NCBI GenBank assembly: GCA_964612745.1
Contig: CAZTCH010000001.1
Location: forward strand, 77,387 to 141,386
Direction of reading: 5' to 3'
Source: an uncultured Candidatus Saccharibacteria bacterium
Lineage (GTDB): Bacteria > Patescibacteriota > Doudnabacteria > UBA920
DNA: 64,000 nucleotides
The notes beneath the pieces are model-generated. The model was not told the DNA's origin and searched no databases. It worked only from the letters and a program-made list of their open reading frames with translations. Position 1 is the first letter of the stretch. Each line of letters begins with the position of its first letter. The position numbers and the translations under genes were made by a program. This document shows, in pieces, positions 12,187 to 45,529 of this stretch.

Positions 12187-13029
12187 TTGCACTCTATGAA
12201 AATTGAACAGACGCATATTCGTAAGTTTCTCTTAGTGGCGGGCGGTGCGGTGTTGATTGCCTTGTTGTTTGTGTTGTGCGCGACTGCTTGGTTTTATATG
12301 GGCTCGCCCAGTGAAACCAAGGAGCGCTTTGCCGCAGCGGCTGGTATACCACTCGGTAAAGTGGGTGGAAGGTACATAGGCGCAGACGAAGTCATGGCTT
12401 GGTCTACAGCTGCTACAAAAACGACCCTCCCTGAAGGGTATTCACTTTCTGAGTCACTCTCACTCCGAGCTGTGGCAGATGGAAAAGTTGGCGTGTCTTC
12501 TGGTGATATAGTTTTGGCAACACAAGCATTGGGCCAAGACGCGGAATATGTAAAGTATTCTCAGGCTGTGGGTACAGATGTTGCTGCGCGAACGGTACTA
12601 ACTGATTTTGTTTTGGGTTATAAACTACGTCAGTGGTATGCCCAGCACTCTGAATTGGAACCGGCATTTCAAAAACAAGTAGAACAAGTGAAGACAGCTT
12701 TTACCAAAGGGCAAGACTTTAACACTGTCGCTACTGCTTATAGTGCTGATTTAGCAACCAAATATTTTTCTGGAGACTTGGGGTATATTGATGTGTCCGA
12801 AGCTGTGCCAGAGTACGCAGAGGCGGTAGAAAAATTAGAGAAAAATAAACTGACTGTTGTGTATACTCGGTATGGTGTGCACTTTGTAGAATTGCTCGAC
12901 ACTGTTTTAAACGGACAAAAGACCATGGTGAAGCTTCGTGAAGTAGTGGTAGAACCGCAGCAGTTTGATGTGTGGCTTGCCTCTGAGGTTTCCAAGCAAA
13001 AAACAACGTGGTACTATGGCCGTAAATAG
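12187..13029 (+). CDS. Membrane-anchored PpiC-type (parvulin) peptidyl-prolyl isomerase, PrsA/SurA-like
   Basis: 280 aa: N-terminal TM and a C-terminal parvulin domain (DLGYIDVSEAVPEYAEAV...YGVHFVEL). Confidence 0.7.
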   Translation: MHSMKIEQTHIRKFLLVAGGAVLIALLFVLCATAWFYMGSPSETKERFAAAAGIPLGKVGGRYIGADEVMAWSTAATKTTLPEGYSLSESLSLRAVADGKVGVSSGDIVLATQALGQDAEYVKYSQAVGTDVAARTVLTDFVLGYKLRQWYAQHSELEPAFQKQVEQVKTAFTKGQDFNTVATAYSADLATKYFSGDLGYIDVSEAVPEYAEAVEKLEKNKLTVVYTRYGVHFVELLDTVLNGQKTMVKLREVVVEPQQFDVWLASEVSKQKTTWYYGRK

Positions 13030-20552: not shown

Positions 20553-22004
<1,452 letters not shown>

Positions 22005-22021: not shown

Positions 22022-22477
22022 ATGAGTCAATTACAGTTAGTTTTGGTGAGTCCAGAGCGAACTATGTATAGTGGTTTTGCCGAGAGCGTGAGTTGCCAAA
22101 CAGAAGACGGCGAGATTACTATTTTACCGCACCATACGCCGTTGTTAACAACACTACGCGCTGGTGAGTTGCGCGTACTGGTAGATGGACAGGTGCAGCT
22201 ATTCCACGTTGGGGGCGGTTTTGCAGAAGTGCAAGCTGGATCTTTGGTTATTATTTTGGCAGACGCCAGTGAACGTGTCTCAGAAATTGATGCAGAACGC
22301 GCGGCAGATGCATTGCAAAGAGCGAAAGAACGGTTAGCGCAAGAATCGTTAACCGATAGGGAATATGCAGCTGTTGCATCGTTAATAGAACGAAATGCAG
22401 CTCGCTTGCAAATTACTCGAAAGCATTCACACAGAAGGCGCAGTCCGGTGACGAGTGAGGGAGTGTTGGAGGAATAG
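22022..22477 (+). CDS. atpC: F0F1 ATP synthase subunit epsilon
   Basis: 151 aa. Final gene of the operon, with a beta-sandwich plus helical C-terminal pattern. Confidence 0.75.
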   Translation: MSQLQLVLVSPERTMYSGFAESVSCQTEDGEITILPHHTPLLTTLRAGELRVLVDGQVQLFHVGGGFAEVQAGSLVIILADASERVSEIDAERAADALQRAKERLAQESLTDREYAAVASLIERNAARLQITRKHSHRRRSPVTSEGVLEE

Positions 22478-22965
22478 AGAATAGAGAATAGAGGGTAGAG
22501 GGTAGAGGGTAAAAAAACTTTTTGCATAGCAAAAAGTTTTTTTAGTACTATTTTCGAATTACGAATTACGAATTACGAATTACGCATTACGAATTACGCA
22601 TTACGAATTACGCATTACGTATTTTGATTTTCTACTTACTACTTTCTACTTACTGATTACTAATTCTTCTATTTCTTCTGTACTTATTACGCATTACGAA
22701 TTACGCATTACGTATTTTGATTTTCTACTTACTACTTTCTACTTACTGATTACTAATTCTTCTATTTCTTCTGTACTTATTACGCATTACGAATTACGCA
22801 TTACGTATTTGTAATTATCTGTTGTGGATATATTATTTTGTATTTGAATTTCTCTTTCAATTCTCTACTCTCTATTCTCTTTTTACTATTTTCTACTTAC
22901 TAATTACTCTTTACTATTCTCTACTCTCTATTCTCTACCCTCTATTTTAAAAAGTTATCAACAAT
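22478..22965. repeat. Composite intergenic repeat region: purine-rich heptamer arm, aattacg/cattacg heptamer tandem, a 91-bp tandem repeat (about 2.3 copies, 22599-22810), and a pyrimidine-rich arm that is the reverse complement of the first arm
   Basis: Direct reading. gagaata/gagggta units at 22478-22510. The 91-bp unit (ttacgcattacgaattacgcattacgtattttgattttctacttactactttctacttactgattactaattcttctatttcttctgtacttat) repeats at about 22599 and 22689. ctctaccctctatt arm at 22900-22960. Confidence 0.7.
22511..22543. terminator. Strong bidirectional rho-independent terminator after the atp operon
   Basis: aaaaactttttgc-ata-gcaaaaagttttt perfect stem, flanked by A and T runs. Confidence 0.6.
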
Positions 22966-22971
22966 TTTTTC

Positions 22972-23001
22972 TTGACATTGAATTTCGTTACTCGCTATAA
23001 T
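22972..23001 (+). promoter_or_regulatory. Consensus sigma70-like promoter (TTGACA, 18 nt, TATAAT)
   Basis: -35 at 22972-22977, -10 at 22996-23001, at the end of the repeat region. Confidence 0.5.
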
Positions 23002-23235
23002 TGATGTGTACAGTTTTTCTTTTACAAAAAAAGAAATAGAAAATATTCCTACACACGTAGGTTGATGAAAAATAAAAATCATCAAAGCGTATCACGCACT
23101 ACAAGAAACACAGAAAGAAATTTATTCTATCCTACTTGCGATCTGCTAAAAGGTTACAACCTCTCTGCAGAGCGGTAGAAAAATTAAGGAACACAATCTT
23201 TAAATTAAATTTGTGTTCCACGGAGACTCAAAAAA

Positions 23236-23319
23236 ATGGCAGCAAAGAAAAAAGCCAAAAAGGCTACAAAGAAGACCGTCAAGAAGGCAACCAAAAAGGC
23301 CTCCAAGAAGCGTCTTTAA
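23236..23319 (+). CDS. 27-aa Lys/Ala-rich basic peptide (MAAKKKAKKATKKTVKKATKKASKKRL), histone H1/Hc1-tail-like
   Basis: ATG with a GGAG SD 10 nt upstream, in-frame TAA, followed within 30 nt by a perfect terminator hairpin. Not in the supplied ORF track because it is under 60 aa. Confidence 0.45.
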   Translation: MAAKKKAKKATKKTVKKATKKASKKRL

Positions 23320-23348
23320 TTTGTTCTTCGCTTAGGCGAAAACAAATA

Positions 23349-23385
23349 TAAAACCACTAAGTTTTTACTTAGTGGTTTTATTTAT
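23349..23385 (+). terminator. Rho-independent terminator
   Basis: aaaccactaagt-tttt-acttagtggttt then tatttatg. Confidence 0.6.
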
Positions 23386-23484
23386 GCCTAAAATTGACTT
23401 GCAAAAAGTCTTAAATTGTTGTACAATATAGATTCTCTTGTGCAGAGTATTCTGCTACTAGGGAGCTCTATTATATTGAACTAT

Positions 23485-24234
23485 ATGTCTGAACCACATT
23501 TTGAGTTACCTAAAAATTTAACACCACGAGACCCTGCAGATAACGATAGGGAGATAGAAGAAATAGTAAGCCCTATCCAGCCAGAACCAAAGCACAAACA
23601 TTTTAAAAGTGGGCTTATCCCTTTGTTGTTAGTTCTTTTGTGCGCAGGTGTGGGTGCGGTTGTGCTCTACGATGCGTGGCCAAAGTTTGAGTACGGTGCA
23701 AAAGAAGCGAAAGCACCAGAAGTTGTTGCGCAAGCAGTCGTACCAACACCATCAGTCATAGAATCCGTACAAGTACCAACACCTACACCACTCGTCTCAA
23801 GCATTGCGACTGATGTACCCAGTGTAGTTGCTGTGGTGCCAGCACCAACTCCAGTAGTAAAGGTTGCAGGAACGAGTACGACTCGTACGAAAAAAGCTAC
23901 AACGTACACCGCAGTAGATGGCGTACGCATAGCGCTTGCTGCAGGGGAAACCGCTTCTACCGGCGAAGGTGTTACGGTGGTATATGCTGCTAGTGGTGCT
24001 GTATTGCTTCGTGTTGAACAGTCTGCATTCTTGCTGGACACACCAGCAGCGCTCGGGTATCAGCTTGCTTTAAGCCCAGATATCTCTCGCTTGCAGTCTA
24101 CATTCTTTGGTGATTATCCAGCGTTCTCTTATGTCCAAGCAGGGCACAAAGGCATGGCGATTATCCGTGGTCAGGTTGTGTACTATGTTACCGAACGTGC
24201 CCAAAATCAGCTTTCTAAATTTTCTGTACAATAA
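23485..24234 (+). CDS. Membrane-anchored protein with Pro/Thr/Val-rich linker and C-terminal globular domain, unknown function
   Basis: Start chosen at MSEPHFELPK, downstream of a TTGCAA, 17 nt, TACAAT promoter-like element at about 23399-23428. Single TM near residue 50. Confidence 0.45.
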   Translation: MSEPHFELPKNLTPRDPADNDREIEEIVSPIQPEPKHKHFKSGLIPLLLVLLCAGVGAVVLYDAWPKFEYGAKEAKAPEVVAQAVVPTPSVIESVQVPTPTPLVSSIATDVPSVVAVVPAPTPVVKVAGTSTTRTKKATTYTAVDGVRIALAAGETASTGEGVTVVYAASGAVLLRVEQSAFLLDTPAALGYQLALSPDISRLQSTFFGDYPAFSYVQAGHKGMAIIRGQVVYYVTERAQNQLSKFSVQ

Positions 24235-24240
24235 CAAACA

Positions 24241-24648
24241 ATGAAACATATTTTAGGAATATTTAATCCCGAATGGGAACTCGTAGCGGTTGTTGAGTTT
24301 GCAGGTAGCGATATGCATCTGCGAACACTCGGCGAGCATTCCTGTGAGCAGATTGTGGTAGACACACTCACTCGTCTCCGGGGAAACGCAGCCGAATCGA
24401 GGCAGCCAGAAAAAGATGAAACAGGTTGTGTTACAGGGTTTAAATCTTTTACTCCCGAAGAAGACGGCTATATCGGAGCAGTGGGCGATGAACTGAGAAA
24501 AGTTGGTGCTCGAGTATTTGAGTTCGACGCAGAGCTTGAAGCATTAGTCCGGCTTATCCCTGTTCCTGCTCGGCAACAATTGTTGCCCGAAGTGCTCTTT
24601 ATGGAAGCTTCGCTTGCTCGTGAAGTGCTATCGCATATTACTATGTAA
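24241..24648 (+). CDS. Hypothetical cytoplasmic protein
   Basis: 135-aa ORF with no recognisable motif. Tightly follows the previous gene. Confidence 0.45.
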   Translation: MKHILGIFNPEWELVAVVEFAGSDMHLRTLGEHSCEQIVVDTLTRLRGNAAESRQPEKDETGCVTGFKSFTPEEDGYIGAVGDELRKVGARVFEFDAELEALVRLIPVPARQQLLPEVLFMEASLAREVLSHITM

Positions 24649-24704: not shown

Positions 24705-25958
24705 ATGACAAAAATTTTACAAAATAAGAAAGTGTTCGCTGCCTTTTTAGGTATCGTGTTTGCACTTTCTGCGTTCCAGTTCGCTGGTGCGTCTCTGAAT
24801 TCGAATTATACTGCTATTAAAAATAGACAAGCGCGTTTTGCAGACACAACGACCGGTGGTGCGGTTATTACTGCTCCAGATCGTTTGCCAGTGGTTACAC
24901 CAACGCCTACACCAGCTGCTCCTTGTGCGATCATTCGCCCAGTTTCTGCAGTTGCTTCTGCTGTGCTTTCTGCTCCAACCGATGCAGTAAAAGCAATAGA
25001 CAACGACGTGAATACCATGTGGAATTCAGGTCAGTTTGCAACACAAGAAACACCAGTGTGGATCGAATTAAACTTAGGGGCAGTGTACGATGTGCAAGGT
25101 CTCCGAGTGCATGTTGCACAAAATCCAGATGCGAGCAGCCAACCAAAGCCTGCAGCACCTTTCCATGTCATTTTGACTGGTGAAAAGGCAAATCCAACCA
25201 CTGTTTCTACTACTTTGCACAAAGACTTGTACAACAAGACTTGGGAAGAAGTATCATTTAATACAGTCGCCACGCGAACACAATATGTACGTGTATTGAC
25301 TAAAAGCTCTCCTTCTTGGGTAGCTTGGTACGAGTTAGAAGTATGTGGAAACCCTTCTGGTCCAGTGGTAACGCTGTGCCCACAAGCACGAGTACAGATA
25401 ACGCAGCTGGCTTTGACTGTCGGTCAGACCACGACCGTTTCTGCTCCAGCGAATTGGTATGGTGGTTCCTTCCACACCACAAACCCTCAGGTAGTTACCG
25501 TAAATGGCACTACCATCACCGCAGTGGCTGCTGGTACTGCATCTATCTACGGAATGGGGTTCCGTGTTGGTCAGAACTGGCCATGTACAGCTGATGCTGT
25601 TATGGTTACCGTTACTGCGCCACAGATACAACCTTTTATTGGTGGATACGGTGTAGTCAGTACTTGTATGAGCCGCATGCATACCATTTCTGCAGTTTCT
25701 CCAGTACCAGCGGAGATTCGCTTTACTGAACTTCGCCTTGAAAAAACTCCTGCGAACCCAGGAAATTACACTGGGCCTCGGGTAGTTACTCTGACGAAGC
25801 AAGCAGATGGTGTATACCGTGGTAGTATTACGGTATCGACAAACCATTTCCCTGCAGGTACTGCTGCAATCTTTCGATTGTTTAGTACCTCTGGTGTGCA
25901 AATTCACCCAGGGTATGGTGCAGTCAGTCATGATTATGACGCACACTGCGGAAGCTAG
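24705..25958 (+). CDS. Secreted protein with F5/8 type C (discoidin) domain and a bacterial Ig-like (Big_2) domain
   Basis: Signal peptide. Discoidin motif AIDNDVNTMWNSG...WIELNLG. Big_2-like VTVNGTTITAVAAGTASI. Confidence 0.6.
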   Translation: MTKILQNKKVFAAFLGIVFALSAFQFAGASLNSNYTAIKNRQARFADTTTGGAVITAPDRLPVVTPTPTPAAPCAIIRPVSAVASAVLSAPTDAVKAIDNDVNTMWNSGQFATQETPVWIELNLGAVYDVQGLRVHVAQNPDASSQPKPAAPFHVILTGEKANPTTVSTTLHKDLYNKTWEEVSFNTVATRTQYVRVLTKSSPSWVAWYELEVCGNPSGPVVTLCPQARVQITQLALTVGQTTTVSAPANWYGGSFHTTNPQVVTVNGTTITAVAAGTASIYGMGFRVGQNWPCTADAVMVTVTAPQIQPFIGGYGVVSTCMSRMHTISAVSPVPAEIRFTELRLEKTPANPGNYTGPRVVTLTKQADGVYRGSITVSTNHFPAGTAAIFRLFSTSGVQIHPGYGAVSHDYDAHCGS

Positions 25959-44632: not shown

Positions 44633-44930
44633 CTAGTTGCGAGTTGCGAGAAAGATTAAGGAAAAGAGAGTAGAGAGTAGAGAATAGAGAGTAGAACTCA
44701 AAACTGTATTGCATTGAAGTTTACAGTTTTGAGTTGAAGTTTTGCGTTTTGACTTTTGAATTTTGAGTTAAGCTTGTGTTTATTTGTGCTTTTGATATTG
44801 TAATTTATTTGATATTTCGTGCTTGTTATTTGGTGCTTCTTGCAACCTACCCTCTATTTCTTCTAACTCTTCTAACTCTTCTCCTTCTAAAACTCTCCTA
44901 AAACTGGGCATTTTGGCTTACCACCCCTAA
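44633..44930. repeat. Intergenic heptamer-repeat element with the 52-bp motif (44719-44770)
   Basis: Purine arm gagagtagagaatagag, the exact 52-bp motif, a T-rich middle, and a pyrimidine arm ctctatttcttctaactcttc. Confidence 0.55.
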
Positions 44931-44931
44931 T

Positions 44932-44960
44932 TTGACATAATTTATACCAAAAGGTATAAT
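44932..44960 (+). promoter_or_regulatory. Consensus sigma70-like promoter for rplU (TTGACA, 17 nt, TATAAT)
   Basis: -35 at 44932-44937, -10 at 44955-44960. Confidence 0.55.
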
Positions 44961-45028
44961 ATTTGGGCAATTTGTTGAGGTTTTTCTCATTTTTGTTTTA
45001 CGATAAATATTTTTAAATTCCTGCATTT

Positions 45029-45334
45029 ATGATCGCTGTATTCGAAACTGGTGGAAAGCAATACTTGGTTTCCAAAGGAACAAAAGTCCAGGTGGAAAAG
45101 CTCCCGGGCGTAAAAGGTGACAAACTTGTTTTTGACAAAGTATTGTTTACTGCTGAAGGTACTGATTACTCCGTTGGCAAGCCATACATTTCTGGCGCAA
45201 GCGTAGAAGCAGAGATCTCCAAGCAGGGCCGTGGCAAAAAGATCGAAGTGCTCAAGTACAAGGCAAAGTCCAAGTACCGCCGCAAGATTGGTCATCGCCA
45301 AGCATATACTGAAGTAGAAATCACCAAGATATAA
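45029..45334 (+). CDS. rplU: 50S ribosomal protein L21
   Basis: 101 aa. MIAVFETGGKQYLVSKGTKV is a conserved L21 N-terminus. No rpmA follows. Confidence 0.9.
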   Translation: MIAVFETGGKQYLVSKGTKVQVEKLPGVKGDKLVFDKVLFTAEGTDYSVGKPYISGASVEAEISKQGRGKKIEVLKYKAKSKYRRKIGHRQAYTEVEITKI

Positions 45335-45336
45335 AA

Positions 45337-45367
45337 AAACGACTCCCTCGAGGAGTCTTTTTTTATA
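45337..45367. terminator. Bidirectional rho-independent terminator
   Basis: aaaaaacgactcc-tcgagg-agtcttttttt. Confidence 0.6.
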
Positions 45368-45529
45368 GCTTCTTAGCTTTCAGCTTCTTAGCTTACAGCT
45401 TCTCAGGCGAGCTCCTAACTCCTATCTTACTATTCTCTAACCTCTACTCTCTACTCTCTCATTCGTCATTACCCCCATCGTTACCTGTATTCCTAAAAGC
45501 TAAGAAGCTAAAAAGCTAGCAGCTAGCTT

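Follow-up and report, generated by a model that had tools for sequence, protein, structure and literature searches.

A 27-codon, lysine-rich open reading frame (ORF) lies at positions 23236 to 23319 of the window, as we call the whole 64,000-nucleotide stretch analyzed here (contig CAZTCH010000001.1, from an uncultured Candidatus Saccharibacteria bacterium). It is located downstream of atpD (20607 to 22004) and atpC (22022 to 22477; NCBIfam TIGR01216) and, together with its own promoter, 5' leader, and terminator, forms a compact, monocistronic, self-contained transcription unit, referred to below as the micro-gene unit. Based on the sequence comparisons that follow, the ORF is very probably a real, translated gene rather than a chance occurrence, and it belongs to a family in which a candidate regulatory RNA precedes a short polycationic peptide. 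The principal features of the unit are as follows.

23236 to 23319, plus strand: microprotein coding sequence, 27 aa, MAAKKKAKKATKKTVKKATKKASKKRL, with 13 Lys and 1 Arg; TAA stop at 23317 to 23319.
22972 to 23001, plus strand: sigma-70-type promoter, TTGACA-18-TATAAT, a 12/12 match, 234 nt upstream of the ATG.
23008 to 23235, plus strand: 5' untranslated leader of ~228 nt, with a predicted transcription start near 23008.
23222 to 23225, plus strand: Shine-Dalgarno (SD) sequence GGAG, 10 nt before the ATG; family consensus GGGAGACUAGC.
23348 to 23386, plus strand: intrinsic terminator P4 (AAAACCACUAAGU/ACUUAGUGGUUUU) plus U-run, with a 15-bp hairpin at 23348 to 23381.
23136 to 23351, plus strand: competing 71-aa ORF with a TTG start, in a different frame from the 27-aa ORF.

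An original prediction, made from the letters of the DNA, had called the ORF unannotated and had placed a GGAG at -10 of its ATG, a consensus promoter about 235 nt upstream, an intrinsic terminator 30 nt downstream, and a 71-aa ORF in another frame. All of these elements lie where they were placed. The terminator hairpin begins 30 nt past the stop codon, is followed by a T-run, and can also be read on the minus strand, i.e., it is bidirectional. In L186, a separate assembly of this organism, the micro-ORF is likewise missing from the gene calls. L186 and the window are 100% identical across a 625-nt segment that covers the complete unit, so the window sequence is not an assembly artifact. A mechanical ORF list places a 40-aa GTG ORF in the remaining frame, and all three frames are open across the purine-rich tract because T is rare there. 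The predicted transcript (23008 to 23390) folds with a free energy of -105 kcal/mol, compared with -63 ± 4.6 kcal/mol for shuffled sequences (z = -9.2). The original prediction described neither the conserved structured 5' leader nor the membership of the ORF in a whole gene family.

Relatives of the micro-gene were recovered by synteny and by leader sequence. When 80 atpD-anchored genome loci were screened for short ATG-initiated ORFs whose Lys plus Arg content is at least 38%, a K-rich micro-ORF was found in exactly the four closest relatives, on the same strand and 1.1 to 1.5 kb downstream of atpD; the encoded peptides are MAKKATKKAAKKKVAKKATKKASKKRL (L005), MAKKKKAKKKSGGKKKKRR (L004), MAKKKAKKKTTKKKSASKKRR (L006), and MPVKKRKAAKRPAAKKAAKRPAKRKAAKKRRR (L034). 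The regions upstream of these four ORFs share a leader with the window. A DNA pattern drawn from the leader only, GTAGAAAATTAA-N15-45-GGGAGACTAG, for which the rough chance expectation is a few matches, retrieved 39 metagenome contigs, and in 37 of these an ATG 6 to 8 nt past the pattern opens a K/R-rich ORF. All but one of these 37 ORFs are complete (17 to 68 aa), with the remaining ORF running off its contig. The family totals 41 complete loci, which represent 38 different coding sequences and encode 34 different peptides. The homologous K-rich micro-ORFs that the original prediction suggested seeking in relatives are thus on record, as the unit recurs in 40 loci other than the window, and the SD, promoter, and terminator that it had singled out are each kept across family loci. 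The window itself has every family element in order, namely, P1, a AAAAUUAAG-type linker, P2, SD, an MA-K-rich ORF, a 3' hairpin, and a terminator, all downstream of atpDC.

Several other matches were rejected. The pattern match in L167 is a chance match, and a covariance-model match in L036 is merely the terminator after a coding gene. A looser leader pattern, applied to viral contigs, gave 63 matches, which were essentially conserved phage coding sequence plus chance matches and included no K-rich ORF; the pattern was tightened after this run and before the metagenome scan. In one viral contig (L094, 565 to 640; IMGVR_UViG_3300035145_000077), GTAGAAAATTAAAG...AAGGAGACTAGCAACAATG resembles the linker and SD context and precedes a non-basic, Cys-containing ORF (MTDDRELSDFKLDRKECPKCG...), and this match is probably due to chance. 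Other K/R-rich segments that might represent a second copy of the micro-gene were sought in the window, and none was found.

Conservation tracks the 27-aa frame, the comparison with the 71-aa frame being the test that the original prediction had named. The ATG, the SD, and the in-frame stop of the K-rich frame are conserved across the 41 loci, while in most members the frame of the 71-aa ORF runs into a stop 3 to 4 codons past the position of the ATG, since ATG-GCT-AAG, read in that frame, includes a TAA. In the third frame, the start codon is mostly absent among members. The 1,015 internal codons of the family include 477 AAA or AAG (Lys) codons and no AAC or AAT (Asn) codons, with Lys accounting for 47% and Ala for 23% of codon usage. 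Nearest pairs of equal length, linked as a minimum-spanning set, show 36 nucleotide differences, 22 of them in third codon positions; 18 codon differences are synonymous versus 9 that are nonsynonymous, although only 1 of 9 single-nucleotide changes in Lys codons is silent. Four loci (L153, L154, L161, and L168) encode an identical peptide, MAKKKKVAKKKKGGSKKKRR, using different codons, and their P2 stems have diverged with compensation. The window and L005 peptides have 19 of 27 residues in common, and their last 12 codons specify identical residues through five synonymous substitutions and no replacements. Across the family, the Arg codons CGC, CGT, CGA, and AGA interchange, and the Gly, Ser, Ala, and Val spacers change synonymously. 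Taken together, these comparisons point to purifying selection at the protein level that extends to non-Lys residues and both termini. In addition, the longest A-run averages 6.0, compared with 6.9 under random placement of AAA and AAG, and is below expectation in 29 of 38 sequences (P about 8e-5, for sequences that are nonindependent); this shortening fits selection against slippery poly(A) tracts.

The leader that joins the promoter to the SD is conserved in structure. Its 5' part, which has two additional hairpins, is specific to the window; the conserved core begins near 23105. The elements of the core, together with the hairpin that follows the stop codon, are as follows.

23105 to 23125, plus strand: purine-rich conserved segment GAAACACAGAAAGAAATTTAT, upstream of P1 and common to L004, L005, and L034.
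23131 to 23178, plus strand: leader hairpin P1, with base CCUAC...GGUAG and a variable distal stem.
23179 to 23187, plus strand: single-stranded linker AAAAAUUAA; family consensus AAAAUUAAG.
23188 to 23219, plus strand: leader hairpin P2 (GGAACACAA...UUGUGUUCC), ending 2 nt before the SD.
23319 to 23347, plus strand: hairpin P3 of the 3' untranslated region, a short hairpin of variable sequence found after the stop in essentially every member.

Most metagenome members have GAAAC(A/G)..AAACAGAAA-type segments. In the family, the base of P1 is CUACU/AGUAG; this base helix is 97% paired, and all five pairs of the distal helix show compensatory changes. P2 ends 0 to 2 nt before GGGAGACUAGC(N3-4)AUG, and the 38 distinct P2 sequences all fold as hairpins of 6 to 11 bp, mostly 8 to 11 bp (mean z of -5.8). 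The SD is predicted to be mostly unpaired, with a mean probability of 0.75 over 38 leaders. By these predictions, the leader alone looks like an "on" configuration, in which a hairpin and conserved single-stranded segments lie on either side of an exposed SD. At the 3' end of every member, a short covarying hairpin past the stop is followed by a terminator hairpin with a U-run.

A covariance model of the leader (R1) yields 42 strong matches of 55 to 102 bits. In the R1 alignment, 85.6% of cells pair, compared with 71.9 ± 1.1% after shuffling and 31 to 49% in slid controls, and 123 cells show double-sided changes, compared with 43 ± 7 after shuffling (none of 500 shuffles reached 123). In the five synteny-derived loci, which were found without a pattern search, AAAATTAA and GGAGACT are invariant. 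Searches of Rfam 15 returned only two tRNAs in the window at gathering thresholds, only terminator-hairpin noise between 22500 and 23500 at E-value limits of 1 to 10, and, with limits in the same range, no match on the leader in seven typical family loci. The leader is accordingly proposed here, on comparative sequence grounds, as a candidate new structured cis-regulatory RNA motif.

The motif (C)AAAAUUA was also observed in three unpaired places of family transcripts (e.g., those of L153, L148, and L168): the P1-P2 linker, the P2 loop (as CAAAAUUA or CAAAAUCA), and the terminator loop (as CCAAAAUUAAGG). It is absent from the P2 and terminator loops of the window. This recurring motif may be bound by an RNA-binding factor. 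Two further pairings were considered and rejected. A pseudoknot formed by a P2-loop UUAGU and ACUAG after the SD is not supported, as ACUAG is kept in UCAGU variants and in the loopless members L149, L179, and L180. Pairing between the 5' and 3' ends (GAAACACAG with the terminator tail) was, by inspection, inconsistent among members.

Nearly all members carry a promoter with 10 to 12 of 12 matches to TTGACA-N16-18-TATAAT located 128 to 299 nt upstream of the ATG; one member has 9 of 12. The 64-kb window contains only two 12/12 promoters on both strands, and the other one drives rplU. A perfect promoter that is matched only by that of a ribosomal protein gene suggests very high expression of the micro-gene. 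The rplU promoter (TTGACA-17-TATAAT, at 44932) precedes a monocistronic rplU (bL21; 45029 to 45334), which is followed by a hairpin terminator (region 44932 to 45370).

A further motif, GTTATCAACA, lies at 22954 to 22963 on the plus strand, ~10 nt upstream of the -35 box. It is present in the window, L004 (about 12606 to 12615), L005, L152, L150, L156, L163, L166, L174, L185, and others, and takes the form ATTGACAA in other members. In most loci, the motif is the C-terminal coding sequence (V-I-N/D) of a PolyA_pol-like gene that precedes the micro-gene, and the window, L005, L152, and L183 retain it although they lack this gene. GTTATCAACA is therefore either a conserved promoter-upstream element or a remnant of the last codons of the lost gene.

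The PolyA_pol-like gene is part of a conserved order, atpD, atpC, PolyA_pol-like gene, micro-ORF, which holds in 21 to 31 of the 41 loci. Its product, a PolyA_pol head-domain protein (PF01743, ~240 aa, tRNA nucleotidyltransferase-like), is present in 31 of the 41 loci. In L004 (11910 to 12632; PF01743, 1.9e-34) and 30 other loci, this protein is unusually short and has a mere trace of the RNA-binding domain. The stop codon of its gene overlaps the -35 box of the micro-gene, and the usual arrangement is a promoter that overlaps the 3' end of this upstream gene. The gene was searched for elsewhere in the window and was not found; in its place, the window spacer contains heptamer tandem-repeat arrays. 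Retention of the promoter and GTTATCAACA despite the loss of the PolyA_pol-like gene argues that the rearrangement left the expression signals of the micro-gene intact.

Between atpC and the promoter of the micro-gene, a 490-nt spacer (22472 to 22946) is made up almost wholly of short tandem repeats, namely, 10 copies of CGAATTA, 2.3 copies of a 93-nt unit, and arrays of CTACTTA, ATTACGC, and TCTCTAC. One end of the spacer carries GAATAGAG/TAGAGGG repeats, and the other carries their reverse complement, as CTCTATTC/CCCTCTA repeats. Repeats of the TAGAGAG/CTCTCTA type also flank rplU, at ~44660 to 44900 and 45370 to 45470, and the tandem repeats look like a genome-wide intergenic repeat class.

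Downstream of the micro-gene, the window contains genes at 23485 to 24234 (249 aa, with one predicted hydrophobic stretch resembling a membrane anchor) and 24241 to 24648 (135 aa), neither of which has a Pfam or NCBIfam match. The gene at 24705 to 25958 encodes an F5/8 type C (discoidin) domain. In relatives, tRNA-Met, tRNA-Met, and tRNA-Asp genes are often found 3' of the micro-ORF, in either orientation, with genes for RmuC, a PD-(D/E)XK nuclease, and an NYN-domain protein farther out. In L174, a 1.6-kb soil contig, the micro-gene is followed at a distance of ~700 nt by a group I intron match (RF00028; 1298 to 1484), whose 64.3 bits exceed the gathering score.

The window atpD product is 79 to 87% identical to proteins of metagenome-assembled genomes from the Patescibacteria (candidate phyla radiation [CPR]). 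The best three full-length records are labeled Candidatus Saccharibacteria, and the best partial record is labeled "Patescibacteria group." The sequences of the window atpC and downstream gene have identical copies in aquatic and other metagenome assemblies. Exact look-ups of the neighboring proteins returned only short contigs or the identical strain, with no very close but nonidentical relative of the window variant.

The family peptides are 17 to 68 aa long and about half Lys/Arg; they start with MA(A)KK and end with KKR(R/A/L). Only this composition and the termini are conserved, and the four-fold length range arises via low-complexity repeat expansion. The commonest style is KKKK-xx-KKKK-xxx-KKKRR; the window and L005 have a KKxx repeat style, and the long forms have an AAKRPAKK repeat style. 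The long members (42 to 68 aa) give weak compositional matches to HC2 and H1-like hidden Markov models (HMMs), all below the cutoff. The original prediction had likened the composition to that of histone H1, Hc1, and AlgP tails. The likeness stands, in that the peptides have the Lys/Ala-rich repeat composition of the H1-like families PF07382, NF038052, and NF038053 and the long members make subthreshold HC2 and Burkholderia H1-like matches; membership in these families does not, because the HMM cutoffs are missed.

Most members are 17 to 27 codons long, and the gene calls of the assemblies examined include no member. Common gene finders use a minimum of roughly 30 codons, and the members were probably missed since they are below this minimum length. 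Trypsin-based proteomics would destroy such peptides. When 10 family peptides were looked up exactly in a collection of 15 billion proteins, only a 32-aa form was present, as a "hypothetical protein." A 44-aa member had no match at an E value of ≤0.01 in a database of 5.8 billion protein clusters, and a phmmer search of all PDB chains with two peptides gave no match at an E value of ≤10, a search in which HMMER's composition correction may suppress low-complexity matches. No description of such peptides in CPR bacteria or Saccharibacteria was found in the open-access full-text literature, which is absence of evidence only.

We propose that the locus is a conserved microprotein gene, preceded by a leader RNA, whose product coats nucleic acid as a polycation. 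By analogy with known polycations, it is likely that the peptide acts on nucleic acid in this way; the complete statement, leader and product included, we hold to be evenly balanced between right and wrong. The peptide would be an abundant, disordered polycation that neutralizes and condenses nucleic acid in ultrasmall cells, as H1 C-terminal tails, chlamydial Hc2, AlgP, and protamines do. Only composition is conserved in the latter proteins and their length is variable, whereas bTHX, bS22, and bL37 fill a fixed pocket. Given that the family peptides vary in length and conserve only composition and termini, bulk electrostatic binding to nucleic acid is favored over a peptide that fits a fixed pocket. 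DNA, i.e., the nucleoid, is a plausible main target, short of a probable one, and somewhat likelier than RNA or the ribosome, which we consider a rather unlikely main target. The leader would most likely set mRNA stability or translation yield, possibly with feedback, if the peptide or another RNA-binding factor recognizes the invariant single strands beside the SD. A bolder version, which we doubt, is that a polylysine "bacterial protamine" made at ribosomal protein levels acts as a bulk counterion and condensing agent for DNA or RNA, its dosage being set by a P1-AAAAUUAAG-P2 leader that senses free polycation or nucleic acid charge.

Several results weigh against this proposal. The window peptide has no Pfam or NCBIfam match at an E value of ≤1, H1-like families included, and the best relative (68 aa) reaches only 20.4 bits against a 40-bit cutoff for PF07382 and 18.8 bits against a cutoff of 80 for NF038053. 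The window leader is a divergent copy when scored with R1 (21.4 bits, E = 0.37), and it deviates from the pattern motifs, with AAAAATTAAGG and CGGAGACTCAA at these positions. Across the 39 metagenome loci, GTAGAAAATTAA and GGGAGACTAG are invariant because the search pattern required them, leaving the five synteny-derived loci as the only independent test of these motifs, and the shuffle statistics overstate independence, as the sequences are phylogenetically related. One locus (L160, 200 to 480, minus strand) combines a leader of canonical form (70.8 bits) with a K-rich tract of the AAKRPAKK type, in frame and ending in KKRR-TAA, and its ATG is replaced by AA(G) through a 1-nt deletion and a substitution; this leader without an ATG marks either a pseudogene or an assembly error. 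Finally, the ribosomal-protein-grade promoter and the conserved leader fit a ribosomal microprotein equally well.

Such a ribosomal microprotein would be a lineage-specific ribosomal or ribosome-associated analogue of bTHX, bS22, bL37, or eL41, buried in rRNA and autoregulating via the leader. Tiny ribosomal proteins are similar in size and charge and are fixed in length and sequence, and many ribosomal protein genes autoregulate through a structured leader. The unit is monocistronic, its 12/12 promoter is matched in the window only by that of rplU, the conserved structured leader adjoins an exposed SD, and many tRNA genes lie nearby, along with a gene resembling those for tRNA nucleotidyltransferases. 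On the other hand, repeat expansion gives the peptides a four-fold length range (17 to 68 aa) with no conserved core beyond the termini, and no PDB chain or NCBIfam ribosomal protein model matches them, so we consider a ribosomal microprotein unlikely. A noncoding RNA, or one of dual function, in which an RNA-binding protein would recognize the A-rich (A-R-N)n tract and the ORF would be incidental, could draw on the folding of the transcript (z = -9.2), its four conserved hairpins, the recurring CAAAAUUA loop/linker motif, and the AAG/AAA repeats, which formally fit ARN triplets. It is extremely improbable, however, given that the third position of AAN codons is only A or G (477 versus 0), that the ATG, SD spacing, and in-frame stop are kept in 41 loci, that Arg codons interchange and spacer residues change synonymously, and that no Rfam family matches.

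The order of promoter, short ORF with ~48% Lys, two hairpins, U-run, and (in the window) a co-oriented downstream gene also bears a superficial resemblance to an attenuator, in which the run of Lys codons in a regulatory leader peptide (upstream ORF) would respond to Lys-tRNA or to translation capacity and thereby govern whether transcription continues past the terminator into the genes beyond it. The genes that follow differ between loci and have no connection to lysine, being a hypothetical membrane protein gene in the window, which has its own promoter-like site, and tRNA-Met/Met/Asp, PD-(D/E)XK nuclease, or RmuC genes in relatives. These variable neighbors, combined with the purifying selection on non-Lys residues and both termini, argue against a classical attenuator, as do the range of ORF lengths (17 to 68 aa) and an SD and promoter geared to maximal output rather than sensing. 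P3 and P4 are independent hairpins in all members, and no conserved antiterminator was seen on inspection of the stop-to-terminator folds, for which no dedicated search for alternative structures was made. A Lys attenuator acting on the downstream tRNA genes was likewise rejected, these tRNAs being Met, Met, and Asp in either orientation. We therefore regard attenuation as very improbable. An exported or host-directed cationic peptide, antimicrobial or cell penetrating, is a role that CPR bacteria, which are commonly episymbionts, might have use for, and polylysine, Tat-like cell-penetrating sequences, and sequences resembling nuclear localization signals are similar to the peptide in composition. 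It is an improbable explanation, as the peptide has no signal peptide and no hydrophobic face (GG/S/T spacers, no amphipathic pattern), no transporter, immunity, or processing genes are adjacent, and the housekeeping synteny and ribosomal-protein-like promoter argue for an intracellular bulk role.

If the abundance of the nucleic-acid-coating peptide matches its promoter, it would be a major unrecognized cell component of a large uncultured bacterial radiation, and it would bear on how genomes or ribosomes are packed and their charge neutralized near the lower limit of cell size. The leader RNA would also provide a handle for finding further hidden genes of this kind. Were the "bacterial protamine" version true, the peptide would be, in effect, a gene-encoded replacement for polyamines or histone tails, and the locus would define a new class of nucleoid or ribonucleoprotein component along with a new regulatory RNA motif.

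Several known systems resemble parts of this unit. The short attenuator peptides of the hisL, thrL, and pheL type share with the micro-gene a short ORF enriched in a single residue and followed by hairpins and a U-run, but the micro-gene lacks a conserved downstream operon or lysine genes, is under purifying selection, and has a long structured 5' untranslated region. Its leader, like ribosomal protein and other cis-regulatory leaders in Rfam, is a conserved two-hairpin leader abutting the SD, although no Rfam 15 family matches it. The small ribosomal proteins bTHX, bS22, bL37, and eL41 are similar in size, charge, the stand-alone and highly expressed gene, and possible leader autoregulation; in contrast to these proteins, which it does not resemble in sequence, the peptide is variable in length and of low complexity.

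The closest functional parallels are probably to be found among H1-like proteins and protamines, since we infer by analogy that the peptide works as an H1-tail- or protamine-type polycation while standing outside those families by the HMM criterion. H1-like proteins (chlamydial Hc1/Hc2, PF07382; those of Burkholderia and Bordetella, NF038053/NF038052; and Pseudomonas AlgP) are, like the peptide, Lys/Ala/(Pro/Thr)-rich and of low complexity, with repeat numbers that vary between relatives, and their presumed common action is electrostatic coating of nucleic acid. The peptide is 5 to 10 times smaller (17 to 68 versus about 100 to 350 aa), scores far below the HMM cutoffs, conserves MAKK and KKRR at its termini, has a conserved structured leader of its own, and comes from Patescibacteria. 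Fish protamines and the adenovirus mu peptide are very short DNA-condensing polycations. Protamines and other short polycations share with the peptide a length of 20 to 30 residues, clusters of 3 to 5 basic residues split by 2 to 3 small neutral ones (KKKK-VA-KKKK-GGS-KKKRR), and the lack of a fold, whereas the peptide is based on Lys rather than Arg, is bacterial, and has no homology to them, so that the likeness is one of analogy drawn from sequence.

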